Origin: a virus
Taxonomy: Duplodnaviria > Caudoviricetes
DNA: 64,000 bases
Virus record (IMG/VR): IMGVR_UViG_3300022908_000070
Location: 1,185 to 65,184 of that record
Strand: one strand, 5' to 3'
Positions 10,512 through 32,478 of the stretch are shown here, piece by piece. Position 1 is the stretch's first letter. Each line of letters begins with the position of its first letter. The notes under the pieces are model-generated. The model was not told where the DNA came from. It searched no databases and saw nothing but the letters and a program-made list of their open reading frames with translations. The translations under genes were made by a program, and so were the position numbers.

Positions 10512-10982
10512 TTAAAACCTTAGATATCCGATGATTGGTTTACCTTGATGTCTCACCTTCCGTTCTACGGCGTACCCATTTCTTGAACCATCGGCGTTTG
10601 TATTACCTTCGATGGTGTGCAGGGTTCCGTCCTCGTCGATCTTTTCGATAATGCCGGTATGACCCAGACCGTGGCCGAGGTCCATAACGAACACATCCCC
10701 TACGGCTGGGAGCCTCACCTGGCTGCGCGGGCGGTTGCCCCACCCTGTCAATACACCGCCCGTTTTACACATTGGATTGACGAGCCCCAACGAATCCGCT
10801 GCTTTTTGATAGCACCAATACATGAAGGCCATGCACCAGGAGGCCGGAAAGTTGATGCTGACGCTGGCCAGGTATTCCGGTACAGGATCACCAGGTTTCC
10901 CCCAGTTGCTTCCGCGGGGATTCTCTTCCTTGCCTATTTGGGAGATAGCGATTTCCAGTGCTTTATTTGATAGTTCGCTCAT
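10512..10982 (-). CDS. Endolysin, CHAP domain
   Basis: WCMAF catalytic Cys, GHTGII, TIEGNT; start MSELSNK at 10982. Confidence 0.88.
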   Translation of the reverse strand: MSELSNKALEIAISQIGKEENPRGSNWGKPGDPVPEYLASVSINFPASWCMAFMYWCYQKAADSLGLVNPMCKTGGVLTGWGNRPRSQVRLPAVGDVFVMDLGHGLGHTGIIEKIDEDGTLHTIEGNTNADGSRNGYAVERKVRHQGKPIIGYLRF

Positions 10983-11362
10983 ATAAACAGTTGAATAATT
11001 AAGAATATAAGCCCCAGTATACACTCCGTTATCCACGCCCTGCCGCCAAATAGCCGACCTTCTAGCTGGTCAATGACCGATGTTGTCGTTGGACTGGAAT
11101 ACTTCCAGGATAGGCCCCGGAAGAGGTTCAGGGATATATTAAAGACGGCCAGCCGTGAACATGCCTGCGCGGTGACAAAGAGAACCAGCTGTAGGTCGGA
11201 TAGATCAGGCCACACCCACCAGGTTGCGCCGGCAATCAGGGCACCGGCCAGCAATCCCCACCAACCGTGTTGTATAGGCCGGCCAGCTTTTATCAACCGG
11301 GAATGCCAGAAGGCGATACCGACGGTCAGCAAAATCAGGATCAGCTCAGGCAGCCAGATCAT
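10979..11362 (-). CDS. Multi-pass membrane protein (lysis region)
   Basis: 3-4 hydrophobic segments. Confidence 0.65.
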   Translation of the reverse strand: MIWLPELILILLTVGIAFWHSRLIKAGRPIQHGWWGLLAGALIAGATWWVWPDLSDLQLVLFVTAQACSRLAVFNISLNLFRGLSWKYSSPTTTSVIDQLEGRLFGGRAWITECILGLIFLIIQLFI

Positions 11363-11835
11363 TTGTAAAGATTTTGATCCCAGAATACTTTGAGATTGCC
11401 GTCGGCCTTCATCAGGCTATCGTATGTCGCTTTCGGGATCTCAGCCTCTTTAGTAACCGCCCAGTCGATAGAAGAAGCCGCTACAGGTAACAAGAGGATA
11501 GCAAGGATAAACGCCCCAATGCCTATATAGCTCTTCCCGGCCCCTGACAGATAGATGATCCCGAATACGATCAGGGCAATTGACAATCCCAGAAAGACAT
11601 AGCAGACCACCAGCTGGCCGTTCGATTTGGCAAGGGCGTATTTCTGGACCTTTGACGGAACGACTTTGTAAAGGCTGTCGAAGACCAGAACCCTCCGAAT
11701 GATCTTATCAGAAGAGTCGCCTACCAGCTCCCAATGTCCCTGCTGTGAGATGTATCGCTGAGTTATCTTATCTCCATATTTTTGGCATGACGCCAGCAGG
11801 AGGAGAATGGGAATAAGAAAGAGAAGTTTTTTCAT
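11359..11835 (-). CDS. Lipoprotein with two internal TM segments
   Basis: MKKLLFLIPILLLLASC lipobox. Confidence 0.7.
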   Translation of the reverse strand: MKKLLFLIPILLLLASCQKYGDKITQRYISQQGHWELVGDSSDKIIRRVLVFDSLYKVVPSKVQKYALAKSNGQLVVCYVFLGLSIALIVFGIIYLSGAGKSYIGIGAFILAILLLPVAASSIDWAVTKEAEIPKATYDSLMKADGNLKVFWDQNLYK

Positions 11836-11841
11836 GATTTG

Positions 11842-12480
11842 TTATTTGAAGATGAAGATTTTAGCCCCAGCTGCCAGTAAAGCAATTGCGAGCCCCCTGG
11901 ACAATGTCTTGTTGAACTTTAGGCGGAAATTGGCCTTGGTGTAATCGGAGTAAAGGCTTGCGTATTTCGCCCTTTGCAAGGCATAGGCCGTGTCCGCCTT
12001 ATAGAATAGCCCCTGCCAATGGGTGATAAGGGTGTCTTTAATAAGCCCTTCCTGTACGCAGGCATTGACCATTTCCATGGTGATGCTGTCATTGGCTACG
12101 ACAATAGGAAGGCCGGCCTTTACTTCAGCCCGCAGACTATCCCAGTTTACCAGGATAGCAGCCGTGTCTCTGCGAATAGCCGCCGCATCCCCGCTTGAAA
12201 GGGTCTTGCGGACGGCCTTACCTCGATCGGAGAGGTCTGCTCGGAGATTTTGAGACAACTCGCTAAGGCTGTCGAACCTGTTTTGCCATTGTTTTTCCTT
12301 GGTGGTCAGCTGGTCGATGGCGGCAAGCTTCGCCTCCCTTTCTGCAGAATAGGCGGTGGCAAGACTATCCATCATCTTTTTGTCGTCCTTATGGCCCGGG
12401 AGATTATTGCAACCCCGAAAGGCTATTACGAACAAAACGACGGCGCCGACTATTCCGGCAATCAAAAGAACTTTTTTCAT
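11842..12480 (-). CDS. Spanin-like coiled-coil protein
   Basis: N-terminal hydrophobic segment ending FRGC, helical coiled coil, C-terminal hydrophobic tail; in lysis module. Confidence 0.6.
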   Translation of the reverse strand: MKKVLLIAGIVGAVVLFVIAFRGCNNLPGHKDDKKMMDSLATAYSAEREAKLAAIDQLTTKEKQWQNRFDSLSELSQNLRADLSDRGKAVRKTLSSGDAAAIRRDTAAILVNWDSLRAEVKAGLPIVVANDSITMEMVNACVQEGLIKDTLITHWQGLFYKADTAYALQRAKYASLYSDYTKANFRLKFNKTLSRGLAIALLAAGAKIFIFK

Positions 12481-12654
12481 GCTACAGTTTTTTGATGAGC
12501 TTGCCAGTTGCGTCGACGACCGCCTTTCCTTTGGAGATCAGAGAATTGACGGCGGAAATATTGGGGTTGTTCCGGCCTACAAAGAAGCCGAAGAGCCAAA
12601 TACAAACAATTCCGAAAATGATTAAGAATGCCATATGCTTAGTTTTTGATGATG

Positions 12655-13071
12655 TTATTGAGGCTTGCCTGCTGGAGTCGGGGCATCCAGATTACCGGTC
12701 ACCCTATCCGCCTGCGTGGTCTTATAATCGATGGCCGCATTGATCCGGCTATTGACTACGCTGAAGAAACGGGACGCCAGGTCGCTGCCCAAATACCCGA
12801 ATGCCGCGAATATGATCAACGTCAGCAGCGTGTTATCGGCAAAAGATGGATACTTTTTAAGGAAAGGCCCCAGAAGGATCAGCGCCATCCCTACCATAAC
12901 CAGCGTACCAGCTACTGATATCCATATATCGGCCTTGAAAAAAAGCTTCCAATCGAAAATGACATTTGCTAATTTTGCTTTGGTCATCTGACTTTTCAGG
13001 ACCATCAATAGGGATAATATCAGTCCCAGCAGGCTGATAAAAAAGCAGTTGAAATAAAGAGCTAAAGACAT
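12655..13071 (-). CDS. Holin-like protein (3 TM)
   Basis: Three TM segments, hydrophilic C-terminus, upstream of endolysin. Confidence 0.6.
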   Translation of the reverse strand: MSLALYFNCFFISLLGLILSLLMVLKSQMTKAKLANVIFDWKLFFKADIWISVAGTLVMVGMALILLGPFLKKYPSFADNTLLTLIIFAAFGYLGSDLASRFFSVVNSRINAAIDYKTTQADRVTGNLDAPTPAGKPQ

Positions 13072-13788: not shown

Positions 13789-14874
13789 TTATTTGGCTAA
13801 CGGGATAATCGTCCCATCCGAATAAACTATCGATGAAATACCTGTTGTCAGATCGCTGATTATTTTGACTGCCGTTCGCTGGGCAGGGCATACAACTGGC
13901 GGAGGGCATGCAGGGCACGGATGGGCTGCCACATACGCTTTAATAATGCCTGCGCTATCTGCCACAGGGCAGGGATGTGAGGAGACGTAAGCCTTTATGA
14001 TGCCGGCAGAGTCCACTTTTGGAACGACGACAACTGGCGGAGTAATGACAACCGGAGGAGGTATAGCATTTACCCGGTATTGCAATGCCCACTGGTATAT
14101 GTTCATTCCGTTTTGGGTAAATGCCGGATCGTAAAACTGTCCCCAGCAACAATGCCCACCACTATAGGCTGTTGAAATTCCATAGCCAGCCTTTATGTTG
14201 TTAATATCCCAGGTGACTAACGAAAGCGTATTGGCTCCGTGCGTGTCGGTTGCGGATCCGAAGCCCCATATTCTGACACTATCCGAAACGATCTGTTTTG
14301 CATACGTCGGGCGGTAGGCTGCATTCATAACCGCAGACATAGGGATGAAGGCGGCTATTTTATGCGTCGCCGGCACCTTTACGCCATTGGCATCTATCTT
14401 GCCAACATACTCCAGAATGCCCTCGCCTCCCGCTGAAAGACCGGTAAGATAGATACGGGATGTATCGATGCGGTAATTTTGGATGAGCCATGTGAGGATG
14501 TATTCCAGTTTCGCGGCTGTGGTGGAAGTTCCGGCGGCCGCGCTCTGTGGGGAAACAATAATAAACTTATAGGGCTGTTTATCAACTGGGTTTACGAAAG
14601 ACGATGGGAATTTGCCAGATGCGATAAAATACGCCGGTCCGCCGGCGGTCGTGCTACTATAAATAGCCGCGGGATTGGTACCGGCTTCGCCAATTCCGTG
14701 AAGAAAGACCATGATAGGATACCTGGTTGTTGTCTTACTGTAGTCATCAGGCAGGTGCAATATTGCCTGCTGGGTTGCGGCTGGTCCGATAGGAACTGAA
14801 ATAATAGTCTGATCTCCCTGTCCGAAACAAAGAAGAGAAGCGAAAATGAGAATGATCGATAATAGTTTTTTCAT
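13789..14874 (-). CDS. Signal-peptide alpha/beta hydrolase with Pro/Cys-rich tail
   Basis: MKKLLSIILIFASLLCFG/Q; VFLHGIGE, RIYLTGLSAGG nucleophile elbow, GGH. Confidence 0.8.
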   Translation of the reverse strand: MKKLLSIILIFASLLCFGQGDQTIISVPIGPAATQQAILHLPDDYSKTTTRYPIMVFLHGIGEAGTNPAAIYSSTTAGGPAYFIASGKFPSSFVNPVDKQPYKFIIVSPQSAAAGTSTTAAKLEYILTWLIQNYRIDTSRIYLTGLSAGGEGILEYVGKIDANGVKVPATHKIAAFIPMSAVMNAAYRPTYAKQIVSDSVRIWGFGSATDTHGANTLSLVTWDINNIKAGYGISTAYSGGHCCWGQFYDPAFTQNGMNIYQWALQYRVNAIPPPVVITPPVVVVPKVDSAGIIKAYVSSHPCPVADSAGIIKAYVAAHPCPACPPPVVCPAQRTAVKIISDLTTGISSIVYSDGTIIPLAK

Positions 14875-14882
14875 AATTGTTT

Positions 14883-16640
14883 TTATTTAAATCTGAATGG
14901 TCTTGGTAAAATGAGGCAGTTGGAGCAACGAGTAGGGCCGACCGTGACCGCCGCAGTAGTCGAGTCGGAAAGCCAGCCGTTATCAACAACTTTCAATTGG
15001 AAGGTGTAGGTGCCCGGCGGCACGTTATAGATGGTGTCTTTGGGACTGGTGACAATCCCCATGCTGACAGTATTGCCGGTTAGTTTTGAATGCGTGTAAT
15101 AGCTGATGTGTACATTATCGGTTGAGGTAGAGCCGTCCAGAATAACCGTGCTACCTGATGCCGTTGCAGTAAGGTGCGGTACTGGTTTGGTATTGGCTGG
15201 AGGAGAGTAGACGTTACAACCTGTCGCTCCGGGGTTGCTTATACACCAGGGAGAAGTAGAGTAGGCAGTAGTTCCGCCTGAAAAAGGAAAGATTTCCGTG
15301 AGGAAGGTCCTGTCCCAGGAATTGGCATAGTTTGATCCCAAAGCCCCATTGCTGGGGCTGCCTTCCGAAATACCGTCCGCCAATACAGATCCCTTGTTTC
15401 GGCCTACAGCATAAAGTCTACCGCCGGCGCGAATGAAGTGTTTGTAAAATACGTAGTCATACCCCTCCGACATATCGATAAAATCGGTGATTCCCGGCGC
15501 CATGTTGATCGGCTTATGCACCTGTAGCTGCGCAGTGCTGGCGTCCTGGTTCCATGCATATGGCCATGGCGTTGTTGTACCATAGGGGAAAGGGTCTCCA
15601 TAGGCCGCCCAGTTGATTTCGTACCCGGCCCCTGCCTGTCCACATTCATTGGCCCCCCAGCTCCATAAGCTCCCATCGTTTAGAATGACATAGGTTGTGT
15701 AATAATTGGTGGACAGTTTGTTGATCGGAGAAGGCAAGTTAAGGGCTGTATCGAGGAGTATCGGCGCATTCAGCGGGTTATAGCCGCTTGTTGCCGCGCT
15801 GCCTACTCCCATATATCCCGGCCACAGTCCCCAACCATAAAGCTTGTTGTTCGTCAGGAGTGCATAGGAAAAGAAGCCCCCGCCGGCTATATCCTTAGCG
15901 GCGGTAGGAAGAGTGAGCTTAACCGGTGTCATGTAATTGGTCCGGGAAGTGCTTCCCAAGAGAGAGTTATTCGGCCCGTTTCCGCCCCATGTCCATACGG
16001 AACCAGTGTTGTCCAGTGCAATTACCACGTTTTGGATCATCACCTTGGTGATCACCGTTCCCCCGGGGAAAGGCACTTGTACAGGTCGCGTGTTCACTTG
16101 ACCATAAGTCCCGTCACCACGATAGCCACCCTTCGTATTGCCCCAAACCCACAAAGTACCATCCGATTTTATTGCGTAAATAATGGCGCCATAGCCCGCG
16201 CCCCCGGTAAAGATTGATGAGCCCATGCGCAGTTGGGTGACGCCATTAAAAGGATTACCGAGAGAATCGACGTCTATTTTCCTGAAATAATTCGTTCCAC
16301 CGGAAGTAGATCCATTGCCCCAAGTCCCATCTTCATTATTCCCGGTTATGTACACATAGCCGGCTGCATCAGCGCAGGAACCGGTATGAAGACCTCCAGC
16401 GACAAATGCGACGGAGGGGGAGGCTATTGTTGTCCCGGCCGAATTTTGGAACTGGGCGGCTGTAGCGTATCCAATATTTTGAGTTGCCGATCCAATCCCC
16501 AGCCCGGTCCCCAGCGCATAGAGAACATGCGAATTTTGATCGAGAATAAAATTCTCATACTCGCCATTGCCGATTTGGTATGGTGATTGCGCAAAGCTAA
16601 AGACCGGCAGAAAAAGTAGTATGAGGAGGAGTCTTTTCAT
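14883..16640 (-). CDS. Signal-peptide RCC1-repeat protein with C-terminal PKD-like domain
   Basis: MKRLLLILLFLPVFSFA/Q; repeated DGTLWVWG.N/GSVWTWG.N/DGSLWSWG.N; VILDGS.S.D...GTYTFQLKVVDN. Confidence 0.8.
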   Translation of the reverse strand: MKRLLLILLFLPVFSFAQSPYQIGNGEYENFILDQNSHVLYALGTGLGIGSATQNIGYATAAQFQNSAGTTIASPSVAFVAGGLHTGSCADAAGYVYITGNNEDGTWGNGSTSGGTNYFRKIDVDSLGNPFNGVTQLRMGSSIFTGGAGYGAIIYAIKSDGTLWVWGNTKGGYRGDGTYGQVNTRPVQVPFPGGTVITKVMIQNVVIALDNTGSVWTWGGNGPNNSLLGSTSRTNYMTPVKLTLPTAAKDIAGGGFFSYALLTNNKLYGWGLWPGYMGVGSAATSGYNPLNAPILLDTALNLPSPINKLSTNYYTTYVILNDGSLWSWGANECGQAGAGYEINWAAYGDPFPYGTTTPWPYAWNQDASTAQLQVHKPINMAPGITDFIDMSEGYDYVFYKHFIRAGGRLYAVGRNKGSVLADGISEGSPSNGALGSNYANSWDRTFLTEIFPFSGGTTAYSTSPWCISNPGATGCNVYSPPANTKPVPHLTATASGSTVILDGSTSTDNVHISYYTHSKLTGNTVSMGIVTSPKDTIYNVPPGTYTFQLKVVDNGWLSDSTTAAVTVGPTRCSNCLILPRPFRFK

Positions 16641-19600
16641 TATTGCATAATTATATAGTCCCAAGAATAATTAGTGCTCGCCGCTATGGTATCGCTTCCT
16701 TGAAGAGTTATCGTCCATGTTGTGCCAGAAGTATGTTGAACATATACATGCGCTATCGTTGGAGATGTTGGCTGAAGGATAACTACGTATGTAGCACTTG
16801 TTGGCATTGTGAAGGTGGCGATTGTCGACCCGGTTCCGGTTCCGGTTCCGGACGTAAATTGAAATGAACCTTTTATGAGATTGCTTCCACTGCCCATTGA
16901 GCTTGGAGCACCGCCGCCGCCAGTTGGTACGGCCCCTCCTAAGCTAAAAGAAGGCGCCGATCCTGTCGTAGTGATCGTAGAAAAAGGCATCGAAGACCCT
17001 CCTGAAAGCGACGATTGCGATACCCACTTCAATTCTCCTGTACCTGTTACTCTGACAAGCACCGAATCGCCAGAAGAGCCTGTCGCAGGCGTTTGAAGCA
17101 TGTAATGTTTTCCCAGTCTGTCGATTTTGAAAAGTGGAGTACTACCGGCTCCAAATTGGACATTGTTGCCTGTTGATACCTTAAAGGAAGAGTCCGATGG
17201 ATCGAGTCCTGCATAGTAATCTCTACCCCAAACTGTGCTCCTAAAAGTGAGCAGAGGGGCACTATTGCCTGTAGTTCCGTTGGATTCAAAATATCCATTA
17301 GCATAGGCCCCTGATGCAGAAGAAGTGTTTTTAAGATAATATTGCAATCCGGATGAAGCCGATCCATTAGCAGCCATATGTTGGTATGTGCCAGACACTA
17401 CAAAAGAAGAGGCGTTAACGCCTATCTCGCCAGCATACGGGATGATATCAATCCCATTGCCTGATGTTGTATTAGCTCTAACCGTTGAATTGAATTGAGC
17501 ATTGAGGATAGTGTTACCGCTTCCAGAATAATTGAATTGAAGAAAAGTATTAGCGCTTACCTCATTGTCTAGTACAGCCCTGAATTGAAGCGAAGCGCTA
17601 CCATAAGGTTTGTAGATATCAATTAATTTTTGATTTGTCGAACCAGTGGGATCGTAAAAAGAAATTAAGTTTCCGAATTGATTCCACCCAACTGTCATTC
17701 GGGCGTTTTTTTCTGAGGTTATGCCGCCGCCGACGTCTACAAGATTAGCGCTTAACTTATCTCCAATATAACTATGGTTCAAAACATTAAAGCCGCCAGT
17801 TTGCGGATAAGCTGTTTGATTCATTACCCCAATCGAATCCTCAGCAGTCATTATCCGGGCATCCGTATTATCATTTCGACGGACATGGAGCCCGTTACGC
17901 ATGTAATAGACCATCCCCGGCGCAATTGGCGTATTAGTATAGCTGACAACAGCTAGACTATCTGCCTGGTAATGGTGATAATACCCCAGCGTGTCCGGGT
18001 GTATGCCATCAGTATAAAGATCTGTGGCGATATTGAAGTAGGTATTGACATGAGAGACCAGGATAGGGTATCCTGGCAGCGTCTGCGCTTTTAAAGAATC
18101 GATCCGGCCATTGAGTGTATCCTGCAATGCTTGTGTAGAATTAGCGGGAGCAGTGGCGTATCCCGTCGAGTTCATATGCGTCGCTTGAATCAGCATGATG
18201 CCATACGCCTTCTTTTTATCAACCAAATTGCCCACATAGTCCATTATGAAAAGCCCCGATCCCGTCTTAACGATCTTTAGAGTATGTGCCGCATTTGTAA
18301 GCCCGGTGATAAAAAAGGCCATCGGGATGCAATCGTTCGAATAGCTGGAGACATCTACTTTACCGTCGGACTGCTGAACAGTTGTACCGGAAAACTGAAG
18401 GACATTATCTATATAGACCGAAAAGGCACTCCCGGTATACCCGTTGAGCCCCGAATTACCCAATGGCACCAGGAAAACCGTGGAGTCGGTGAACTGGTAA
18501 ACCAGGGAGTCGTTGGCTGTGCTGGTGTATGCGGCGTTGGTAAACTTACCTGTCTGCAGAGTAGCATCCCACGGAGTAGTCCAGCTCCCGTATCTCGTCA
18601 CGCCAAGCCCAGTACTACCCGCCGGCACCTGCTTTTTCGCAAACTGATTCGCTATAGCAGCCTTCATGGCATTAAGGACTTTCTGAGAAGTAGGGCGGGG
18701 TAAGCCATTTTGCCGCACATCGTTAAACTCACCGCCAAAGTTCGTAAAGGTGGAGTGACCCGGATTTACTTGTTTGTTCATGTTGGCAATAGCTGTCGCT
18801 ACCCCGGTTGAAGACACTGAATAGTTTTTCTCTTGTACATGCAGAACTTTCGAAGCCAGTTGATAAGACCAGCGGATTGTTGTATCCGTATAGGGGTAGC
18901 CGACACCGATGGAGTTATCGAACGTGCTCATTGTGGTTGGATAAAGTAGTCCCCCTAAATTCGTGTATTGAGACGAGTCTATATAATCGAGGTGGGTTCT
19001 GGAAGAATCGGAATTGAGCGTACCCGTTGTCTTGTTAACCTTCAGGTTTGTCACCGTTCCGAAGGCGCCAGAATTATTTATCTGAATCTGTCCGTCTGAA
19101 GCCGCCGGCGTGCCCGATGACGCCGATATAACTGCTCCCAAGCTATCTATTACCTTCCTGGTCCTGGCCAGCGTAGTATACCCAACGCCAGATGAGTCTC
19201 CTTTATGTAGAATGATCAGGTTAAGGCTATCCAGAGTCTTGTAGAGTCGCTTAAAGGTGGCATAAGAAGTTGAGTCTTTTATCTGGATGTACTTTCCCTG
19301 GTTGAAGCCATCAGTATGAAATCCCCCGCCCTGAGTCGCTGCAGAGTCAAAAGCGGCTGCTGCCGGATCAACGTAGACGGTTACTGTGCTATCCGGATTT
19401 AAATACACATGGGCTGCTCCGCTATCAATTATGCCTTTAAGAGCTATCACACTATCGTGACCCCGACCGAGCATGATACCTCTTCCTCCATCCTTCTGAA
19501 AATAGATATTCGCCTTTGTCCCCGTATCCACTTTCCCCAGCAGGAGGTTATTAAACACTGCCCGTAAACTGTCTGCGACCTTATTTGTATGAGCCACTGT

Positions 19601-20293
19601 TGTGTACCCTGAAGGAACAACGGAGTCCGCTTTGAGCTTATATAAAGTCAGGAGGGCATTGAAGTTTGCCGTCAGGCTGTCCGCCAACTTATTTTTGTTC
19701 GCTATCGTCGTATACCCGGAAAGACGGACCGAATCCGTTGACAATTTGTACAAACTGATCAACGCATTGAAATTGGCCGTAAGACTATCAGCAAGCTTGT
19801 TTTTGTTGGCGATGGTGGTGTATCCCGAGAGTCTTACTGAGTCCGTGCTCAGTTTGAAAAGAGAGTTGAAGATAGCTGTAAGGCTGTCGGCGAGTTTAAG
19901 GCGGTTCGCGTTTGTGCTATACCCAGATAATGATACAGAATCGGATTTATCCTTTTTGGCGTTGATCCGGTTCGAAAGGGAGGTGGTGTCGGTTGAGCCA
20001 CCGGTGCCTGAGCCAATTTCAGTCCAAATGTGTCCCCCCGTCAGGACTGTGTCTCGCTTATACTGCTTTCCATTGCCGATAATTTGAATTATCAGGCCAA
20101 GTTCGTCTTTGCCGTTATGTAGCCCATGGGCCGTATCTACGACCGTCGGGATAGCTAGATTAAACATGACCTTTTGCCGATAATCTATTACTCTCACGGT
20201 TGAATCGCCGCGTGTCAGGCTTGGCTGCTGTCCATATGCCAATGTGCTCGAAAAGAGCAGGAATGCTGTAATTAACTTATAATACAAACGCAT
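16640..20293 (-). CDS. Large tail-fibre-position protein with signal peptide, 36-aa repeats and SGNH-hydrolase-like domain
   Basis: Start MRLYYKLITAFLLFSSTLAYG/QQ; GTPAASDGQIQINNSGAFG fibre-like linker; SGNH blocks FDNSI, GEFND, DGIHP. Confidence 0.75.
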   Translation of the reverse strand: MRLYYKLITAFLLFSSTLAYGQQPSLTRGDSTVRVIDYRQKVMFNLAIPTVVDTAHGLHNGKDELGLIIQIIGNGKQYKRDTVLTGGHIWTEIGSGTGGSTDTTSLSNRINAKKDKSDSVSLSGYSTNANRLKLADSLTAIFNSLFKLSTDSVRLSGYTTIANKNKLADSLTANFNALISLYKLSTDSVRLSGYTTIANKNKLADSLTANFNALLTLYKLKADSVVPSGYTTVAHTNKVADSLRAVFNNLLLGKVDTGTKANIYFQKDGGRGIMLGRGHDSVIALKGIIDSGAAHVYLNPDSTVTVYVDPAAAAFDSAATQGGGFHTDGFNQGKYIQIKDSTSYATFKRLYKTLDSLNLIILHKGDSSGVGYTTLARTRKVIDSLGAVISASSGTPAASDGQIQINNSGAFGTVTNLKVNKTTGTLNSDSSRTHLDYIDSSQYTNLGGLLYPTTMSTFDNSIGVGYPYTDTTIRWSYQLASKVLHVQEKNYSVSSTGVATAIANMNKQVNPGHSTFTNFGGEFNDVRQNGLPRPTSQKVLNAMKAAIANQFAKKQVPAGSTGLGVTRYGSWTTPWDATLQTGKFTNAAYTSTANDSLVYQFTDSTVFLVPLGNSGLNGYTGSAFSVYIDNVLQFSGTTVQQSDGKVDVSSYSNDCIPMAFFITGLTNAAHTLKIVKTGSGLFIMDYVGNLVDKKKAYGIMLIQATHMNSTGYATAPANSTQALQDTLNGRIDSLKAQTLPGYPILVSHVNTYFNIATDLYTDGIHPDTLGYYHHYQADSLAVVSYTNTPIAPGMVYYMRNGLHVRRNDNTDARIMTAEDSIGVMNQTAYPQTGGFNVLNHSYIGDKLSANLVDVGGGITSEKNARMTVGWNQFGNLISFYDPTGSTNQKLIDIYKPYGSASLQFRAVLDNEVSANTFLQFNYSGSGNTILNAQFNSTVRANTTSGNGIDIIPYAGEIGVNASSFVVSGTYQHMAANGSASSGLQYYLKNTSSASGAYANGYFESNGTTGNSAPLLTFRSTVWGRDYYAGLDPSDSSFKVSTGNNVQFGAGSTPLFKIDRLGKHYMLQTPATGSSGDSVLVRVTGTGELKWVSQSSLSGGSSMPFSTITTTGSAPSFSLGGAVPTGGGGAPSSMGSGSNLIKGSFQFTSGTGTGTGSTIATFTMPTSATYVVILQPTSPTIAHVYVQHTSGTTWTITLQGSDTIAASTNYSWDYIIMQ
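19545..19960 (-). repeat. Four ~36-aa tandem coding repeats
   Basis: (K)..DSV..SGY.T.A...K.ADSL.A.FN repeated four times. Confidence 0.85.
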
Positions 20294-20651
20294 AAAAATG
20301 AAAATTTGATGTTGTTGCGTCAAAGTCCGGAATCAGGATTCTGAACCCACCTCCAGGCAGGTCCGTCCATTCTCCATTGGCTTTAATCAAGAACCTCGAA
20401 TTCTCATTAAAGAACACTGCTATATTCTTACCCGCTAAAGTTGTAAGCGGGCAGTCTGTTGCATTGATAAAATTTGCGCTCGTCAATTCCACCACCGTAG
20501 ACCCGTTGCCGCCTCCACCACCATATGAATCCGCCAGGTCGGTGATCATTAACAGAATTCTGTTCAACCCCATATCATGGAAGGCCTCGACCGCATAATT
20601 GCGAACGATCTTATTAATAAGGGTCTTTATGTTTTCTGCATTTGCACTCAT
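20277..20651 (-). CDS. Hypothetical structural protein
   Basis: 124 aa; C-terminal domain similar to that of 27497-28183. Confidence 0.7.
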   Translation of the reverse strand: MSANAENIKTLINKIVRNYAVEAFHDMGLNRILLMITDLADSYGGGGGNGSTVVELTSANFINATDCPLTTLAGKNIAVFFNENSRFLIKANGEWTDLPGGGFRILIPDFDATTSNFHFYAFVL

Positions 20652-21936: not shown

Positions 21937-24134
21937 TGAAATAAATAGGAGAATTTATATTGGTCAGGTAAAATGAATCCATCGGCATTCTGGTCGGCCA
22001 GGGTTTCGACAAAGACTCCCCGCCATTGGCCGGTTGCGTAGTCCTTTTCATAGCTCGTTAGCATATATCTTTTGGTAGGCTCATCGCCCTCTATGAAAGA
22101 ATAGCTTCCGAGATAACCGTTCATCCGAATGACGTATAAGTTATCCTTTGGCAGATAGACAAGGCCCCTCCAGGTTCCCTCAAGTTTTTGGTTCATCCGG
22201 AATAGATGGTTGTACATGATCCGCTCCATCAGCTGGGCAAACCGGAAGCTTTCTGTTATTCCAGCCCTTTCCCAGGTGGGTCGGCATAGGTCGCCATTCG
22301 CTAGCAGGAGCGCGCCTTTAAAATACCGCTTCGGGCTGTCCGAGATCTCTACATCGTCGGACTCCGTCTGCTTGATGGCATTGTTCGATCCGGAGAAATT
22401 GTAATCACCTTTCAGCGCCTTATATGACCCCTGTAAATAAGGGACGATTGTTACTTGCAGGTTTTTATACCACTGTTCGTCATTCGCGGGACCGTTGGAA
22501 GTGGTCAGCAATATCTTCACGGTTCCGGATACCGGAGCTATAAGAGGGTAAACTGAACCCATCTGCATAGTAATCCAGTCCGTTGCCTTATCTGAAGAAG
22601 TACCCTCATATCCGTAACCGGGTGTGCCGTTGAATCCGCTGGCCGCGTTACGAAACTGGCTATTCGTGGCAAACCATTGGGCCCTGTTCGAAAATGGATC
22701 CGCTATTCCAGGCCCCTCGGCTCCGTTTACGGCCCAGAAAGTCCCGTCATCGCCGGTAAGGGTTACGATAATATTGCCGTAGGAAGGTCCTCCTGCGCGA
22801 GTATTTTTCCACCTTGCGGTAACGGATATTTGCAAGGCGTCGGATGTGTCAATATAAAAAGTAGAGGATTCTAAATAGGATAACACCGAGGTGGCTTCAA
22901 TAACCGAGTATCTTTCTTTCTCATAATCCAGTTGATCCAATACCGACCTTATGTAAGCTCTTTTATCCGGAGTCGTGGCGGGATAAGGGTTTTTGAAAAC
23001 ATCCGCGTTCGTGCCGTTACTAAGCGCCCAGCAATAAACATCATATCCTTCTGTCTTCAGATCAACCGGCGGCTGTATAGATGGGTCTAAGATTGAGCTA
23101 CTGATAACGGCATCGTACGTCGCGTTCCTATCTCCTTCGGCAAAATCCTGATTGCAAACTTTATTTTGAGACTGATCGTAATTGTAGGTGAGCTTTATCC
23201 ATTTCGTCGCCAGCTTCAGATATATAATCTGATCTTCGTTGACCGGGTGAATGATTTCTTGACGGCCAATAGCTATGCTGTAGTCCTGAGACAGTCCTGA
23301 TCCAACCGCCGTCACGGGAACAATCCCGCTTACTGGGCTTCCAAATTGGTATTCCCGATATGTAAAGCCGGCTGGGTTCAGGTATTCGTACAAGGAAACC
23401 AAATTCCAGACACCATCCTCCTGGAAGAGACGACATCGGAAACACCTTACTATCTTTTCCAGCGCCGTATAACAGTCGTCCGCCGATGTAGCGTTTACGT
23501 CAACCGACGGGTCATCCGGAGTGGAATTGAAGGCATCGCCCTGTGAGAACGTGATGGCGCTTAAATAGACCTGTTCCAGGGCGCCTATATTCTGATTGAA
23601 GGAAGATTCGAAGAAATTGAAATAGACCCGCAGATTGAGGGTTTGGCCGGTCTTGTGTAATATTTGAGCAATCCAGGAGAGTACGGATTGGATGCCGACA
23701 AATCGAAGGCTATCCGTGTCTTCCAGGTCGACGCCCTTGAGCAGGCCCAACCCATCCAGTGCGCGAATGGAAAGAACAAAAGGCTTGTCTAAAAACGGCT
23801 GGCTATTATCTTCAACAACTACGAAACCCTGAAAAACAGACTTTGTGTAATCCTCGTCCCGGTAGATGGTAACCCGGATTTGGTTATCCTGAGACGCAAC
23901 TAGGTCGGCTATGGTAATATCCGTATCCTCTTCGACCACTATATTTATCAGGGCTTCGGTGCCTATAATCGATTCCAACTTATTCTCGTCGCCAGCTGTT
24001 GATCGAAGAGTCAATACGTCGTCCGTTCCTTTCAGGATGGTAGGGTCGCCAACAAAATCCAGATATTCCAGATAGATCTCGTAGAACTCATCGAGATCGT
24101 TATCAAATGGCAATATGTACCTGGTATTATACAA
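21933..24134 (-). CDS. Tail tip / minor tail structural protein
   Basis: 733 aa directly after tape measure; A.DGLGLLK motif common in Bacteroidota siphovirus tail proteins. Confidence 0.7.
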   Translation of the reverse strand: MYNTRYILPFDNDLDEFYEIYLEYLDFVGDPTILKGTDDVLTLRSTAGDENKLESIIGTEALINIVVEEDTDITIADLVASQDNQIRVTIYRDEDYTKSVFQGFVVVEDNSQPFLDKPFVLSIRALDGLGLLKGVDLEDTDSLRFVGIQSVLSWIAQILHKTGQTLNLRVYFNFFESSFNQNIGALEQVYLSAITFSQGDAFNSTPDDPSVDVNATSADDCYTALEKIVRCFRCRLFQEDGVWNLVSLYEYLNPAGFTYREYQFGSPVSGIVPVTAVGSGLSQDYSIAIGRQEIIHPVNEDQIIYLKLATKWIKLTYNYDQSQNKVCNQDFAEGDRNATYDAVISSSILDPSIQPPVDLKTEGYDVYCWALSNGTNADVFKNPYPATTPDKRAYIRSVLDQLDYEKERYSVIEATSVLSYLESSTFYIDTSDALQISVTARWKNTRAGGPSYGNIIVTLTGDDGTFWAVNGAEGPGIADPFSNRAQWFATNSQFRNAASGFNGTPGYGYEGTSSDKATDWITMQMGSVYPLIAPVSGTVKILLTTSNGPANDEQWYKNLQVTIVPYLQGSYKALKGDYNFSGSNNAIKQTESDDVEISDSPKRYFKGALLLANGDLCRPTWERAGITESFRFAQLMERIMYNHLFRMNQKLEGTWRGLVYLPKDNLYVIRMNGYLGSYSFIEGDEPTKRYMLTSYEKDYATGQWRGVFVETLADQNADGFILPDQYKFSYLFQ

Positions 24135-26298
24135 GCGAGTTGTTTTTATTGGACCGGGCCAATGCCAGACGAATATTGTTTCCTGAGATCATCCCCCGGA
24201 CATTGATGTCCTGCGGTCCTCTACCCTGAGTAGATTGAACGAACCTGTTTAACTGGCTGAGTGGGAATATGACTTCCGGGCCAGCCTCACCCACGAGTCC
24301 CAGGGTAGGGCCGGTGACGATGCCGCCGGTAGCAAAAGCATGGGCGCCAGTTTTTGATACTGAGTTTTTAAGCACTTCGCCCAGAGCAATTGCGCCTATA
24401 CCAATTGCGATACCTGCGATAGGATCTTTGAAAAGGCTGTCCAATGCGACTTTTATTCCTTTGATAATAGTGCTAGCCAATATCAACTCCTTGCCTACCG
24501 CTATCAGGCCGTTGCCGAGTATTTCACCAAACGCAGCAATGGACTTATCAAAACTAACGCCCGTTAACGCATCCCCGATCGCTATACCCACCTGATCGAA
24601 TCCGGCCGCGGCGACACCTTGCACGATTGACGTTGCGGCCTTGTTCAAATCCCTCAATACGCCATCTGCTATTGTTTTTTCATCGACAATTGCTTGAATC
24701 TTAGGAGTCCATCTGATTGTCGGTAGATTTTTCTGTGCGTCATCTGTGATCTGCTTTAATAGGTATCCTTGATCTGTTTTATTCAGCCCCGAATCCTCTA
24801 TAGCCAGCTTTATATCAGCCGGCACTTTTAATTGTATTTGCTTGCCAAACGTTTTTTCTATCTGACTTTCCAATTTCTCCGTTGACTTTACTGCATCCTC
24901 TGGATTCGCCAGCGTGAAATCGACACTGGAAAGCAGGTTGGGATTTTTGATCCGGGCAATCTGCCGGTTTACCAGTTCGATCAGCGTTTTTACCTCAGTG
25001 GCCGCTTCGGGTGTGCCGAGTTCGGCGCCCTTTTTTATGGCGTCTGCTATCTGTTTTTGTAATAGTGCAACGCCGTTGAGTTTATCATCAGCGATAGAAT
25101 CCCGCAGCCGAGTAAACAAGGTTCTCGTATCAACTTTATCCAGGGACTTCTGCGCTGCCTCAATTTGTTTAAGCAGATCATCTGTGGGGCCTTTTTTACC
25201 AGCCGGCTCATCCTTCAGGGGCTTCTGCAATAATTGCAGGGCAATATTCTTATTTAGCTCCCCATTGTAGGTTGCTATGGCCGTCCGCAGATCCAACACT
25301 GCCGCCCTTTGCTTTTCGTAAGCAGTATTCGCCGCGTCAAGCGCTTCAAGATTTTTATTGGTTAGAATATCTGGACCGCCTCCCGCTACATTGCCGGCAG
25401 ATGCGGCAATCGGCCCCTGTTTGGTGACGGCCGCCTGCGCTCTATCTCTGGCGTCCCTCAGTTTATCGAGTACGTGAGCCTGTTTTTCCAATTCACTGGA
25501 AACCTTGGCTATCTCATCCACCTGCCCTTTAACAATCGCTTCGGTGATAAGCGCCTGGCTATATTCATTGACGCGACCGGCAAGCGTTTTTAGCGAGTTG
25601 GCTTCCAGGGTCAAATCCCCGAAATAAGCTTTATTAGTTTCCCTTAATTCGATGAGTGCGTTCTGCCTCTCCTTGTACGACTTATTGGTATCCTGGATGG
25701 CTGCTGCCAAGGCTCGCACCCTGGCGATATTGCCTTGTTCGCCGCCGGTAGCCGAAAGGGTTATATCCCCGGCTTCTTTCAGGCCGTCAATAGCTTTTTG
25801 AAGCGCTATTACATCTTCTGATGCCTTTTTAGCCGTCCTGCCCGTTCCATCCAGCCCCTCGTCAAATATTCCTATGGACTTGGCCGCCTCAAGCAGGCCG
25901 GCCCCTATCGCTCCGAATATCCCCGCCACTCCGATGCCCGGAAGTACAAAAGCGAGTTTGCGAATGGAACTAAATGCACTGGTGGCAAACCCTGCAACAT
26001 TACCCCCCGCGTTTTTCACTTTATTGCCGAACTCGTCGAATCCTTCAACGCCTATTTTCCCCAGTCGGGAAGACTCGGCGCTGAGATCTTTAATTGCACG
26101 GTTTAATACCTGCAACTCTGCCGGATCTCCTACTTCCTTCTGTGCGTCGCGCAATGACTTCAGCGCCTGGTTGATCGCCGTTATATTACCAACGCCTTCA
26201 ACCGCCAGCTCTCCCGTTGCGTCGGTCAGGTCCGAAAGCTTCAAAATAGCCTCCCGAACATCTGCGCTAATTTTTATTTTCAGACCGACGTCACTCAT
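24127..26298 (-). CDS. Tape measure protein
   Basis: Ala/Gly-rich helical 723 aa; C-terminal AFATGGIVTGPT..LVGEAGPEVIFPL. Confidence 0.9.
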   Translation of the reverse strand: MSDVGLKIKISADVREAILKLSDLTDATGELAVEGVGNITAINQALKSLRDAQKEVGDPAELQVLNRAIKDLSAESSRLGKIGVEGFDEFGNKVKNAGGNVAGFATSAFSSIRKLAFVLPGIGVAGIFGAIGAGLLEAAKSIGIFDEGLDGTGRTAKKASEDVIALQKAIDGLKEAGDITLSATGGEQGNIARVRALAAAIQDTNKSYKERQNALIELRETNKAYFGDLTLEANSLKTLAGRVNEYSQALITEAIVKGQVDEIAKVSSELEKQAHVLDKLRDARDRAQAAVTKQGPIAASAGNVAGGGPDILTNKNLEALDAANTAYEKQRAAVLDLRTAIATYNGELNKNIALQLLQKPLKDEPAGKKGPTDDLLKQIEAAQKSLDKVDTRTLFTRLRDSIADDKLNGVALLQKQIADAIKKGAELGTPEAATEVKTLIELVNRQIARIKNPNLLSSVDFTLANPEDAVKSTEKLESQIEKTFGKQIQLKVPADIKLAIEDSGLNKTDQGYLLKQITDDAQKNLPTIRWTPKIQAIVDEKTIADGVLRDLNKAATSIVQGVAAAGFDQVGIAIGDALTGVSFDKSIAAFGEILGNGLIAVGKELILASTIIKGIKVALDSLFKDPIAGIAIGIGAIALGEVLKNSVSKTGAHAFATGGIVTGPTLGLVGEAGPEVIFPLSQLNRFVQSTQGRGPQDINVRGMISGNNIRLALARSNKNNSLV

Positions 26299-31608: not shown

Positions 31609-31645
31609 GCGGCTCGATCCGCCGTAGTGCTTTATGAGTTACATA

Positions 31646-32278: not shown

Positions 32279-32478
32279 TTAATTTGATTATAACATACCT
32301 GACATAAGTCAGAAACGGTTTTCTTTTCTTCCCCTACTTGCACCTCCAGCGTAAACCGCTGGCCCATTATAAAGGCCCCGCAATTTCTGCATGGCAGGCA
32401 GCGTGGCGATAAATTTACCCCTATTGTCATCCCCAGTACCTTTCGACGCTTCAAAAACATCTTTCTTATTTTTCCCAT
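32275..32478 (-). CDS. Small Cys-rich (zinc-finger-like) protein
   Basis: CRNC and CQVC pairs; stop overlaps next start. Confidence 0.5.
   Translation of the reverse strand: MGKIRKMFLKRRKVLGMTIGVNLSPRCLPCRNCGAFIMGQRFTLEVQVGEEKKTVSDLCQVCYNQIK

Follow-up and report, generated by a model that had tools for sequence, protein, structure and literature searches.

A probable prophage fibre/esterase gene with a predicted Sec leader and an excess of Bacteroidota O-glycosylation sequons

The window analysed here, a 64,000-nucleotide stretch of an IMG/VR provirus record (IMGVR_UViG_3300022908_000070), carries on its minus strand a gene for a 1217-aa protein (16640-20293), which we call the fibre/esterase gene. 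The gene is co-oriented with the tail module and lies 3′ of the tape measure and tip genes, in the order tape measure, 733-aa protein, 364-aa protein, 124-aa protein, fibre/esterase gene, lysis genes. The 124-aa gene immediately upstream (20277..20651, minus strand) encodes no leader, and its stop overlaps the fibre/esterase start by 17 nt. The C-terminal 71 residues of its product resemble the C-terminus of a 228-aa protein encoded at 27497-28183, and its position matches that of gp090 of Cellulophaga phage phi10:1, which is structural by MS/MS according to the record; as a guess, the 124-aa protein could be the docking partner of the fibre.

Downstream, a TAATG stop/start overlap joins the fibre/esterase gene to a gene for a 585-aa RCC1-repeat and PKD protein (14883..16640, minus strand), and 8 nt further lies the gene for a 361-aa alpha/beta hydrolase (13789..14874, minus strand), which weakly matched PHB-depolymerase-type esterases. 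Both products begin with predicted leaders that end before Gln (MKRLLLILLFLPVFSFA followed by Q and MKKLLSIILIFASLLCFG followed by Q). A five-gene lysis cassette lies 3′ of this module (10512..13071, minus strand), encoding a holin-like transmembrane protein (12655-13071), a transmembrane-anchored spanin-like protein of 212 aa (11842-12480), a lipoprotein (11359-11835), a further transmembrane protein (10979-11362), and a CHAP endolysin (10512-11036). The GC content of the fibre/esterase gene is similar to that of the remaining prophage. A scan for promoters and terminators, in which Bacteroidota promoters were not modelled, returned chance-level numbers (15 versus 14.3 and 9 versus 8.5).

By its sequence, the N-terminus of the fibre/esterase protein (MRLYYKLITAFLLFSSTLAYG followed by QQ) is a textbook Bacteroidota Sec/SPI leader. 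Leaders were judged by n/h/c anatomy by eye, by our own crude Kyte-Doolittle hydrophobicity rule, and by conservation. The features sought were a basic n-region, an h-region made up of some 10-15 uncharged, hydrophobic residues, small side chains at -3 and -1, and Gln at +1, in keeping with the Bacteroidetes Q-rule (PMC5837995 and PMC10653852). By eye and by the hydrophobicity rule, the predicted signal peptide (residues 1-21; 20231..20293, minus strand) has all of these: two basic residues in MRLYYK, a 12-residue hydrophobic core (LITAFLLFSSTL), and A-x-G before Gln, as AYG followed by QQ. Cleavage is thus predicted before Gln22. With an alternative TTG start at 20323, the protein would be 10 residues longer and still contain the leader-like segment. 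Searches of NCBIfam (E ≤ 0.1) and Pfam found no T9SS C-terminal sorting domain in this protein or in the RCC1-PKD protein, and the fibre/esterase protein also has no lipobox.

The mature protein can be divided into four regions, all on the minus strand. The N-terminal domain (approximately residues 22-105; 19979..20230) is shared by homologues P0002, P0009, P0010, P0014, and P0154. It was poorly modelled by AF2 and is a candidate docking domain. It is followed by an Asp-Ser-rich stalk (residues 106-440; 18974..19978) that includes four 36-aa repeat units (residues 111-254; 19532-19963). The stalk is predicted, with low confidence, to be helical with short loops. Tail fibres are elongated and as a rule trimeric; here, mean pLDDT was 41.5 for a monomer model of residues 22-460. 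Two 32-aa repeat stretches are identical as protein, yet have the same codons at only 8 of 32 positions. As synonymous change is saturated while the amino acids are unchanged, the repeats have probably been under long purifying selection in place.

Alignment, AF2, and Foldseek together identify an SGNH-type carbohydrate esterase with an inserted beta-sandwich (residues 441-830; 17804..18973). AF2 confidence was high (pLDDT >90) across approximately residues 451-785 (about 335 residues), and the catalytic-block residues S461 (in DNSIG), G497, N524 (in FND), and D762 and H765 (in DGIHP) are invariant in the 10 sequences of alignment A2. Matches in the PDB included acetyl-mannan esterase (6hfz) and viral hemagglutinin-esterases. 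In BFVD, the viral structure library, the top hits were tail fibres and minor tail proteins of phages. Although Pfam returned no family for the protein at E ≤ 0.01, homologues P0011 and P0012 carry precomputed PF13472. The SGNH-esterase label of the initial annotation, made from the sequence alone, holds by alignment and modelled fold. The remaining beta-rich C-terminal region (residues 831-1217; 16643..17803), of which AF2 modelled only part with confidence, varies among homologues and is a candidate distal or receptor-binding part. The N-terminal domain and repeats are common to the nearest homologues, the enzymatic module is SGNH, pectate lyase (PF12708), or PF26696, and the C-termini differ. 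As judged from these sequences, the architecture is that of a modular fibre, with a constant proximal part and exchangeable distal or enzymatic parts.

We counted strict O-glycosylation sequons as D-[ST]-[AILVMT], the motif defined in the review PMC12871550. According to that review, the motif marks non-cytoplasmic Bacteroidota proteins, its sites are nearly fully occupied, and engineered motifs become glycosylated. The fibre/esterase protein contains 65 Asp, of which 34 are followed by Ser or Thr; 28 are strict sequons, and D-S/T accounts for 23 of the first 31 Asp. These numbers reproduce exactly those counted by hand in the initial annotation. In 10,000 composition-preserving shuffles, strict sequons numbered 5.8 ± 2.3 with a maximum of 16, and D-S/T averaged 14.3 with a maximum of 27; no shuffle reached 28 or 34, respectively. 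The sequon count is about 5 times that expected by chance. The excess is specific for Asp and for the permitted third residue. When X in X-[ST]-[AILVMT] was Asp, occurrences were 4.8 times expectation, compared to at most 1.6-fold for 18 of the 19 other residues (the exception, Trp, was at 2.5-fold with only two observed). The mirror of the motif occurs twice. The third residue was a permitted one in 28 of the 34 D-S/T (background 0.406, binomial 7e-7).

All 28 sequons lie C-terminal of residue 21, with four in the N-terminal domain and 14 in the stalk. The excess sits in the N-terminal stalk and esterase domain (18 versus 2.8 expected for residues 22-440 and 8 versus 1.9 for residues 441-830), not in the C-terminal part (2 versus 1.2 for residues 831-1217). 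As noted initially, a DSV and a DSL recur in each 36-aa repeat, and we found both in all four units, which contribute 8 of the 28 sequons. These units are not independent; merging them into one left 22 sequons, a count that also exceeds the highest seen in any shuffle (16). Structurally, DS(L/V) could partly serve as a helix cap in the repeats. The excess is also present outside the repeats, in residues 22-110 and 261-440.

Across the window, sequon content followed the presence of a signal peptide or transmembrane segment. The 44 leader-less phage ORFs contained 24 sequons versus 33.4 expected (0.72-fold). The eight ORFs with a signal peptide or transmembrane segment contained 45 versus 11.1 expected, and 17 versus 5.3 when the fibre/esterase protein was left out. 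Individual counts were 4 versus 1.6 for the RCC1-PKD protein, 3 versus 1.0 for the alpha/beta hydrolase, and seven sequons for the spanin-like protein. At 2.3 sequons per 100 aa, the fibre/esterase protein is far above the other exported ORFs in the window. The major capsid protein (34438-35610) has no strict sequon, as had been reported for it. A cytoplasmic methylase (51089-51943) has four by chance.

We scored the fibre/esterase protein and 155 homologues for leaders. Using our crude hydrophobicity rule, 119 of the 156 proteins bear a leader, 26 have none, six are apparently N-terminally truncated, and five are ambiguous; by a crude rule, Gln follows the first small-x-small in 53 of 115. 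A leader was found in 11 of the 13 closest homologues, either at the annotated start or once the ORF is extended upstream; P0008 retains just a remnant, and P0013 lacks a leader. Conservation of the leader extends to diverged homologues with at least three N-terminal domain types. The signal peptide proposed in the initial annotation is thus supported by both its anatomy and its conservation.

The sequon excess is coupled to the leader, both in the homologous esterase domain and across the prophage ORFs. Esterase domains of leader-bearing homologues (n = 104) contained 453 sequons versus 159.7 expected (2.84-fold), compared to 39 versus 33.0 (1.18-fold) in leader-less homologues (n = 23). Most of this excess derives from four conserved columns, which hold four of the eight esterase-domain sequons of the fibre/esterase protein. 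A complete sequon is present at these columns in 64, 57, 49, and 89 of the 104 leader-bearing homologues, and in 3, 2, 3, and 3 of the 23 leader-less ones. At column 603, the leader-less homologues have Asp in 13 of 23 and a sequon in 2 of 23. Outside the four columns, the means were 1.77 (leader-bearing) and 1.22 (leader-less) sequons per domain. Part of this contrast is due to common ancestry, as the leader-bearing homologues are more closely related among themselves. No excess was found in six leader-bearing homologues (P0096, P0100, P0113, P0122, P0127, and P0128) or in a 1303-aa leader-bearing protein of contig L006 (3 versus 5.0 expected). Such coupling would be expected of a mature protein that comes into contact with the O-glycosylation machinery of the periplasm.

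In IMG/VR contigs L002, L003, and L007, leader-bearing homologues are likewise flanked by tail genes on one side and lysis genes on the other. L003 is a phi18:3-like phage with no further large fibre candidate in the displayed region; in L007, the fibre homologue is followed by a leader-bearing homologue of the RCC1-PKD gene. The longest contigs for P0002 and P0009 match in size those for capsid homologues that are 58% and 55% identical to ours (55,873 and 40,225 bases), and the equal sizes suggest that each pair shares a contig.

By sequence identity, the prophage is a relative of the phi10:1-like siphoviruses (Assiduviridae per the record), rather than a formal member of the taxon. Compared to phi10:1 (NC_021802), TerL is 40% identical (E 1e-97), the major capsid protein 34% (4e-57), portal 25%, MuF 26%, protease 28%, and the 733-aa protein 25% to gp088, and gene order is identical. 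The slot of the fibre/esterase gene, which separates the tape measure and tip genes from the holin gene, is occupied in phi10:1 by gp091-gp095, five proteins with Sec-type leaders that end before Gln. The GenBank record annotates gp091-094 as structural from experimental MS/MS, as are gp085-gp087, with leaders of the same type, in this slot of phi18:3 (NC_021794); neither record mentions the leaders. The slot proteins of both phages have tailspike-type enzyme modules (pectate lyase). The primary paper on these Cellulophaga phages is said to be that of Holmfeldt et al. in PNAS in 2013. BLASTP detected no similarity between the slot proteins and the fibre/esterase protein, so the MS/MS support is by synteny only; by this analogy, it favours virion association. 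Unlike the enriched fibre/esterase protein, the slot proteins are sequon-depleted (5 versus 13.0 in phi10:1 gp091-095; 3 versus 9.8 in phi18:3 gp085-087); thus, export and sequon richness are separable. Both phages are lytic marine phages of Flavobacteriaceae, whereas the fibre/esterase gene is in a prophage.

Several phylum hallmarks indirectly suggest a Bacteroidota host with an O-glycosylation system: the Q-rule leaders, an Arm-DNA-bind_5 integrase in the prophage, the Cellulophaga-phage-related core genes, a fibre/esterase homologue assigned to Puia sp., and the sequon excess of exported ORFs. The prophage also has GT4 and GT11 glycosyltransferase genes (29891-31608) inside its structural module.

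Taking together the leader, the surplus of sequons that is coupled to it, the fold of the esterase, the gene's position, and the kinship to phi10:1, we infer a model to which we assign a probability of roughly 0.5: the gene belongs to a temperate siphovirus of the phi10:1 type, and its product is a fibre/esterase that is made late, exported by Sec, O-glycosylated by the host, and probably added to the particle at lysis. It would be translated late, as part of a single compact gene run that also contains the tail genes, and reach the periplasm of a Bacteroidota host as a Sec preprotein. Signal peptidase I would cut after AYG21, and the Gln22 thus exposed would probably be converted to pyroglutamate by the host. 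Many of the 28 sequons, mainly those in the N-terminal stalk, may then be decorated by the general O-glycosylation system of the host. The mature protein, with its short N-terminal domain, repeat stalk, SGNH carbohydrate O-acyl esterase (whose inserted beta-sandwich may be of a sugar-binding type), and variable distal part, would serve as a distal fibre and receptor-modifying enzyme. Since heads and tails are built in the cytoplasm, it would meet them only after the holin breaches the inner membrane, and attachment would therefore occur at or after lysis. We know of no documented export-then-attach route by which a periplasmic fibre joins a cytoplasmic tail. For the periplasmic routing and dense glycosylation proposed in the initial annotation, leader conservation and sequon-leader coupling provide in silico support, with cleavage, pyroglutamate, and glycans as predicted consequences. 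That annotation left open whether the protein joins virions at lysis or is displayed on the cell. The phi10:1 and phi18:3 synteny favours the virion, although the syntenic proteins are non-homologous and sequon-depleted.

It is possible, if clearly less probable, that the protein is exported and glycosylated but never enters the virion, and is instead secreted as enzyme cargo with the RCC1-PKD protein and alpha/beta hydrolase. Such cargo would deacylate envelope or capsule sugars and thereby aid release, destroy receptors on debris, or block superinfection, with adsorption left to the leader-less 733-aa and 364-aa tail-tip proteins encoded upstream. Three leader-bearing enzymes in a row directly before the holin would suit this role, as would the fold matches to receptor-destroying hemagglutinin-esterases and carbohydrate esterases, and export would physically separate the protein from tail assembly. 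Matrishin et al. (2023; PMC10367356) take Q-rule leader proteins of Porphyromonas gingivalis prophages to be modifiers of the host envelope. The two downstream enzymes fit exported cargo as well as they fit a fibre set. However, MS/MS-based annotation makes the proteins that fill this slot in phi10:1 and phi18:3 structural, the top viral hits by structure are to tail fibres and minor tail proteins, and a constant N-terminus, variable distal part, and length of 1000-1600 aa are traits of receptor-binding fibres. Moreover, no other large fibre candidate is present in the displayed region of L003, and no T9SS domain or lipobox is available to carry the protein beyond the periplasm.

Two further readings, which dispense with export or virion assembly, seem unlikely. 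In one, the leader is unused, folding and attachment to the tail both take place in the cytoplasm, the only documented route for tail fibres, and the sequons are structural and glycan-free. The eight sequons in repeat units and four more at conserved columns are compatible with this, as are the small difference between leader-bearing and leader-less domains outside those columns and the leader-bearing Cellulophaga structural proteins that are not sequon-rich. This reading fits less well with a leader that is kept though the domain following it differs among homologues, which argues for function, and whose anatomy, with Gln at +1, is the type of host exported proteins and of both neighbours. 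Also against it are the excess in the non-repeat residues 22-110 and 261-440, and the lack of complete sequons in leader-less homologues even where Asp is kept (column 603). Least probable, in our view, is a moron, acquired not long ago from a host gene for a surface or periplasmic protein and expressed in the lysogen to alter its surface, with leader and sequons as cellular baggage. Secreted bacterial proteins often contain the domain types encoded downstream (RCC1, PKD, PHB-depolymerase-like), and Bdellovibrio cells own leader-bearing, phage-fibre-like trimers, as described in part of PMC10769870. Yet start/stop overlaps bind the gene to both the upstream tail gene and the downstream gene, the promoter and terminator scan (within the limits noted above) was at chance, and GC is like that of the prophage. 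Recent capture also fits poorly with the saturated synonymous change in the 32-aa repeats and with the apparent persistence of protein and leader in phages with 55-58% capsid identity, as suggested by the equal contig sizes.

SGNH phage fibres and tailspikes likewise combine an SGNH esterase with a beta-sandwich module on a long modular tail protein, and the best BFVD matches included a minor tail protein of Gordonia phage Beenie, a hydrolase and minor tail proteins of Arthrobacter phages, and tail fibres of Rhodococcus and Klebsiella phages (best Foldseek E 7.5e-22; identity 9-15%). The fold plan is shared with viral hemagglutinin-esterases (ISAV, torovirus, coronavirus, and influenza D; 5t9y, 3i26, 5n11, and 5e64), and the two-domain acetyl-mannan esterase CEX (6hfz) has the same SGNH and lectin/CBM-like beta-sandwich plan. 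Viral hemagglutinin-esterases are glycosylated surface proteins of the secretory pathway that bind and destroy a sugar receptor. These matches are at the fold level only (E 1e-5 to 1e-7, TM-scores 0.2-0.4, identity 8-11%), and we take the modelled likeness as fold resemblance, not as evidence of common descent or the same substrate.

Bacteroidota O-glycosylation substrates, as described in PMC12871550, likewise pair a non-cytoplasmic targeting signal with motifs above composition expectation. The fibre/esterase protein differs in being phage-encoded, within a virion gene module; the word "phage" does not occur in that review. The phage-tail-fibre-like MAT (mosaic adhesive trimer) fibres of Bdellovibrio bacteriovorus also begin with a signal peptide, after which come an N-terminal domain that is conserved and adhesive tips that vary, but, per the same part of PMC10769870, are encoded by the predator's cellular genes and shown on its own surface. 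We found no homology between them and the fibre/esterase protein, and that part of the source reports no O-glycosylation sequons. The P. gingivalis prophage Q-rule proteins are phage-encoded and were read as using host Sec; they comprise five genes of unknown function that are not described as fibres, and "glycosylat" does not occur in PMC10367356. Mycobacteriophages have glycans on structural proteins and, like the prophage with its GT4 and GT11, encode glycosyltransferases within the structural module. Freeman and colleagues reportedly found in 2023 that the phage enzymes of this virion glycosylation modify capsid and tail tube proteins while these are in the cytoplasm. To our knowledge, neither export nor a host sequon system is involved.

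Our literature search found no description of a sequon-rich, leader-bearing phage fibre. Characterised tail fibres are cytoplasmic and have no targeting signal, and, as the initial annotation held for ordinary fibres, leaders are absent from gp22-26 of crAss001 and gp46 of Flavobacterium phage 11b, two cultured Bacteroidota phages. The fibre/esterase protein, in contrast, carries a leader. Unlike in known tailed-phage fibre making, the host-recognition part of this phage probably matures outside the cytoplasm.

The minus-strand ORF at 16640-20293 encodes a 1,217-residue candidate fibre and SGNH esterase whose N terminus has the anatomy of a Sec/SPI signal peptide: two basic residues are followed by a hydrophobic core of 12 uncharged residues and by A-Y-G (together within residues 1-21), before Gln-Gln. 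This is the pattern given for SPI substrates in Bacteroidota in the Q-rule papers (PMC5837995, PMC10653852). The leader call is a prediction from sequence, based on this anatomy and its conservation. We rejected a lipoprotein, as the leader contains no Cys and there is no lipobox; a T9SS cargo, as the C-terminal sorting domain was absent in Pfam and NCBIfam searches; and a leader-less isoform starting at Met43, as this residue is not kept in homologue P0002.

The initial annotation described the protein as packed with the Bacteroidota O-glycosylation sequon, D-(S/T)-(A/I/L/V/M/T). Its manual counts (65 Asp, 34 followed by Ser or Thr, 28 strict sequons, 23 of the first 31 Asp in D-S/T) were all exact, as was its statement that the capsid protein has no strict sequon. 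When we carried out the comparison with composition-preserving shuffles that it had proposed, 10,000 shuffles gave a mean of 5.8 ± 2.3 strict sequons and a maximum of 16, compared to the 28 observed. Asp preceded (S/T)(A/I/L/V/M/T) 4.8 times as often as expected, while other residues did so at most 1.6-fold, except Trp (2.5-fold, on 2 observed), and the mirror motif occurred twice. The third residue after D-S/T was an allowed one in 28 of 34 cases, against a background of 0.41 (binomial, 7e-7). Eight of the sequons are located in four 36-residue repeat units and so cannot be counted as independent; with the four units reduced to a single one, 22 sequons remained, still more than in any shuffle. 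By region, observed and expected sequons were 18 and 2.8 in residues 22-440 and 8 and 1.9 in residues 441-830, with no excess (2 versus 1.2) in the last 387 residues.

In composition, the protein combines its many Asp with 10 Glu (0.8%) and one Cys. According to a review of Bacteroidota O-glycosylation, Glu in place of Asp is not tolerated in the motif in B. fragilis (PMC12871550). Residues 147-178 and 183-214 (window 19652-19855) are identical 32-residue stretches that have 8 of 32 codons (67 of 96 bases) in common, and all 29 base differences are synonymous. Such a pattern suggests that the peptide is under strong purifying selection, or that identity at the DNA level is selected against.

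Sequon content was compared between predicted compartments. In the window, 44 ORFs lacking a leader or TM segment held 24 sequons (33.4 expected) and 14 leader-less structural ORFs held 11 (14.9 expected), while eight ORFs with a leader, lipobox or TM anchor held 45 (11.1 expected), or 17 versus 5.3 with the candidate left out. The sole clear leader-less exception, a cytoplasmic N6/N4 DNA methylase (51089-51943), has 4 strict sequons versus 0.8 expected, which we took as chance.

A HMMER scan of 1.84 billion representatives yielded 306 homologues of the candidate, mostly matching through the central domain. We scored 156 proteins, consisting of the candidate, the best 149 others among the 306 homologues and six further homologues. 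By our own, crude hydrophobicity rule, 119 of these have a leader and 26 lack one; 6 are probably truncated and 5 are ambiguous. Within the homologous domain, leader-bearing proteins (n = 104 of those scored) contained 453 sequons versus 159.7 expected (2.84-fold), compared to 39 versus 33.0 (1.18-fold) in leader-less proteins (n = 23), the leader-bearing set being more closely kin within itself. Outside the domain, the same proteins showed 2.77-fold and 0.93-fold ratios, respectively. Four of the candidate's eight esterase-domain sequons (residues 595, 603, 725 and 732) lie at conserved columns, where 64, 57, 49 and 89 of the 104 leader-bearing homologues have a complete sequon, as opposed to 3, 2, 3 and 3 of the 23 leader-less ones, even where the Asp is kept. 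Beyond these columns the difference was small (1.77 versus 1.22 per domain). Six leader-bearing homologues and the homologue on viral contig L006 had no excess, and the leader-less homologue on contig L004 had 1 sequon versus 5.1 expected. By tracking the leader, the excess provides indirect evidence for exposure of the mature protein to the periplasm.

An excess of sequons is also seen in TM-anchored, spanin-like lysis proteins from Bacteroidota phages, with 7 sequons versus 0.7 expected in the window (11842-12480), 4 versus 0.3 in gp27 of crAss001, 6 versus 0.4 on contig L007 (11344-12087) and 3 versus 0.6 on contig L003 (16229-16879).

Alignment and the predicted fold identify the central 390 residues as an esterase of the SGNH type into which a beta-sandwich is inserted. 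Ser461, Gly497, Asn524, Asp762 and His765 were invariant in an alignment of 10 sequences, and the AlphaFold model was confident over the esterase region (pLDDT >90). Fold matches in the PDB were a two-domain acetyl-mannan esterase and viral hemagglutinin-esterases; in a viral structure library, the matches were minor tail proteins and tail fibres of phages, the best at E 7.5e-22. The N-terminal 440 residues comprise a conserved domain of ~85 residues, a Gly-rich linker and Asp-Ser-rich repeats. AF2 modelled the N-terminal 439 residues poorly (pLDDT 41.5), and complex prediction with three copies of residues 91-271 scored 0.02 against a mark of 0.42, which speaks neither for nor against a trimer. 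The closest homologues keep the leader, N-terminal domain and repeats and exchange the enzyme (SGNH, pectate lyase or PF26696) and the distal part; as judged from these comparisons, this is the modular plan of receptor-binding fibres. Pfam, PHROGs and NCBIfam held no family for the protein, no match was detected among PDB sequences by phmmer (E <= 1) or in 50,697 phage records by tblastn, and the best ESM Atlas feature scores (0.85-0.86) were under the meaningful level. A profile search with the esterase-domain alignment found 8 viral loci and none in genome contigs, and the full-length alignment found no confirmed relative in genome or viral contigs.

The window, 64,000 bases out of a 65,184-base IMG/VR provirus record, contains a siphovirus-like prophage on the minus strand. 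Its gene order starts with the large terminase (39116-40471) and portal (37562-39055), followed by a Mu-F-like protein and then a prohead protease, the HK97-type capsid protein (34438-35610), a block with GT4 and GT11 glycosyltransferases (29891-31608) plus three unassigned ORFs, head-tail adaptors, the major tail protein (26971-27399), the tape measure (24127-26298) and proteins of 733, 364 and 124 aa. The candidate comes next, followed by two more leader-bearing genes (14883-16640 and 13789-14874) and a lysis cassette of holin-like, TM-anchored spanin-like, lipoprotein and CHAP endolysin genes (10512-13071), all on the minus strand; an integrase (6317-7639) is last. A sigma-70 promoter and terminator scan gave chance-level results with a model ill-suited to Bacteroidota. 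Two tyrosine integrases with Arm-DNA-bind_5 and SAM-like domains (6317-7639 and 62906-64000) flank the prophage, the second of which may be part of another element. The C-terminal 71 residues of the 124-aa protein (20277-20495) are 39% identical (E 7e-14) to the C terminus (27497-27715) of a 228-aa protein encoded between the major tail and neck genes; this common domain could serve in docking or decoration.

Other IMG/VR contigs have a similar arrangement. On L002 (84.7 kb), L003 (71.4 kb) and L007 (63 kb), a leader-bearing homologue comes after tail genes and is followed by holin-like, spanin-like and lysozyme genes, often with further leader-bearing genes after it. The leader-bearing gene after the fibre on L007 (7960-9747) is a homologue of the RCC1-PKD gene that follows the candidate at 14883-16640 (28% identity over 283 aa, E 7e-8), which suggests that the two genes form a conserved module. 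L003 resembles Cellulophaga phage phi18:3 in its terminase and portal. A search with the capsid protein returned 420 homologues, and the longest contigs of fibre homologues P0002 and P0009 equal in size (55,873 and 40,225 bases) those of capsid homologues 58% and 55% identical. From these matching sizes we infer that each pair lies on one contig, in which case the leader-bearing fibre has been retained in the phage lineage over long divergence.

By sequence comparison the prophage is also a relative of a cultured phage, Cellulophaga phage phi10:1, with identities of 40% for TerL (E 1e-97), 34% for the capsid protein (4e-57), 25% for the portal and 25% between the 733-aa protein and gp088. The phi10:1 gene order is that of the window: tape measure, gp088, tail-tube-like protein, small protein, fibre slot and holin-like genes. 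Its fibre slot is occupied by gp091-gp095, all five of which begin with Sec-type leaders ending before Gln. The record labels gp091-094 as structural "based on experimental MS/MS proteomics analysis", and phi18:3 gp085-087 are likewise leader-bearing and recorded as structural by MS/MS. Thus, according to these annotations, leader-bearing slot proteins are found with purified particles in cultured Bacteroidota phages. The slot proteins are depleted in sequons (5 versus 13.0 expected in gp091-095; 3 versus 9.8 in gp085-087). BLASTP detected no homology between them and the candidate and, against P0002-P0156, only a weak C-terminal match of 40-67 aa from phi18:3 gp086 to P0085 and P0035. The tie to the cultured phages consists of synteny and homologous core genes and does not extend to the fibres. 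phi18:3 gp086 and phi10:1 gp093 have the same first 45 residues, and gp094 and gp087 are almost the same over this stretch; as these phages are a siphovirus and a podovirus, the leader appears to travel with the fibre module. Since crAss001 gp22-26 and gp46 of Flavobacterium phage 11b have ordinary N termini without a leader, the trait is limited to some Bacteroidota phage lineages.

The O-glycosylation review describes the motif as marking non-cytoplasmic Bacteroidota proteins, with sites that are almost fully occupied and engineered motifs that become glycosylated; the glycan is assembled on undecaprenyl phosphate and transferred in the periplasm (PMC12871550). If the leader is functional, glycosylation of many of the 28 sites is thus the default expectation. 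Our best reading, with a probability of about one half, is that the candidate is a fibre/esterase that is made late, exported, cleaved by SPI and O-glycosylated, and that is added to the tail once the holin has opened the inner membrane, at which point the exported fibre would meet the cytoplasmically built tail. In the main alternative, the protein is likewise exported and glycosylated but works together with its two exported neighbours as an enzyme, either free or bound to the envelope. This reading is in keeping with the adjacent leader-bearing genes, but we consider it less likely in view of the fibre-like modular plan and the leader-bearing structural proteins of phi10:1 and phi18:3.

It is unlikely that the candidate is a cytoplasmic fibre in which the motif is structural; half of the esterase-domain sequons do occupy conserved columns, and these columns lose the complete sequon in most leader-less homologues. 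A captured host gene expressed in the lysogen is very unlikely. The ORF is fitted tightly among phage genes: there is a 17-nt overlap between its start and the end of the upstream 124-aa gene, and its stop has one base in common with the ATG of the following gene.

A late-joining, glycosylated fibre raises the tentative possibility of a second, extracytoplasmic branch of morphogenesis in tailed Bacteroidota phages, in which a Sec-exported, pyroGlu-trimmed fibre coated with host O-glycan would dock after holin opening. The glycan would perhaps be re-tailored by the GT4/GT11/methyltransferase cluster (29891-33968) between the capsid and head-tail adaptor genes. In this cluster we confirmed GT4 (PF00534) and a GT11 fucosyltransferase-family protein (PF01531), and three neighbours (210, 245 and 212 aa) had no Pfam match; the enzymes could modify the O-glycan while it is lipid-linked, or act in the cytoplasm to add sugars to virion proteins. 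Were such a branch to exist, lysis would be an assembly step and the host-recognition gear of the virion would bear a host-type sugar coat.

To our knowledge, heads, tails and fibres are assembled in the cytoplasm in all characterised tailed phages. A Sec-exported, probably host-glycosylated fibre would give phage assembly an added compartment and a timing problem, make infectivity dependent on host secretion and glycosylation genes, opening new routes to resistance, and place host-type glycans on virions in a phylum that is dominant in gut, soil and marine particle communities. Direct tests are possible, as phi10:1 and phi18:3 of Cellulophaga baltica are cultured and have virion proteomes, the motif is easily mutated and glycoproteomics methods exist for Bacteroidota. 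In the literature covered, which included few subscription journals and no supplements, we found no description of a leader or of O-glycosylation sequons on a tail fibre, and phages go unmentioned in the O-glycosylation review (PMC12871550). The parts are individually known, namely SGNH tail fibres, the Q-rule, the O-glycosylation motif and phage Q-rule proteins; the nearest published match is that P. gingivalis prophages encode Q-rule proteins (PMC10367356). To these the window contributes a temperate siphovirus with the gene order of a cultured phage, a within-domain control of leader-bearing versus leader-less proteins, and the co-occurrence of the fibre with a phage glycosyltransferase cluster.
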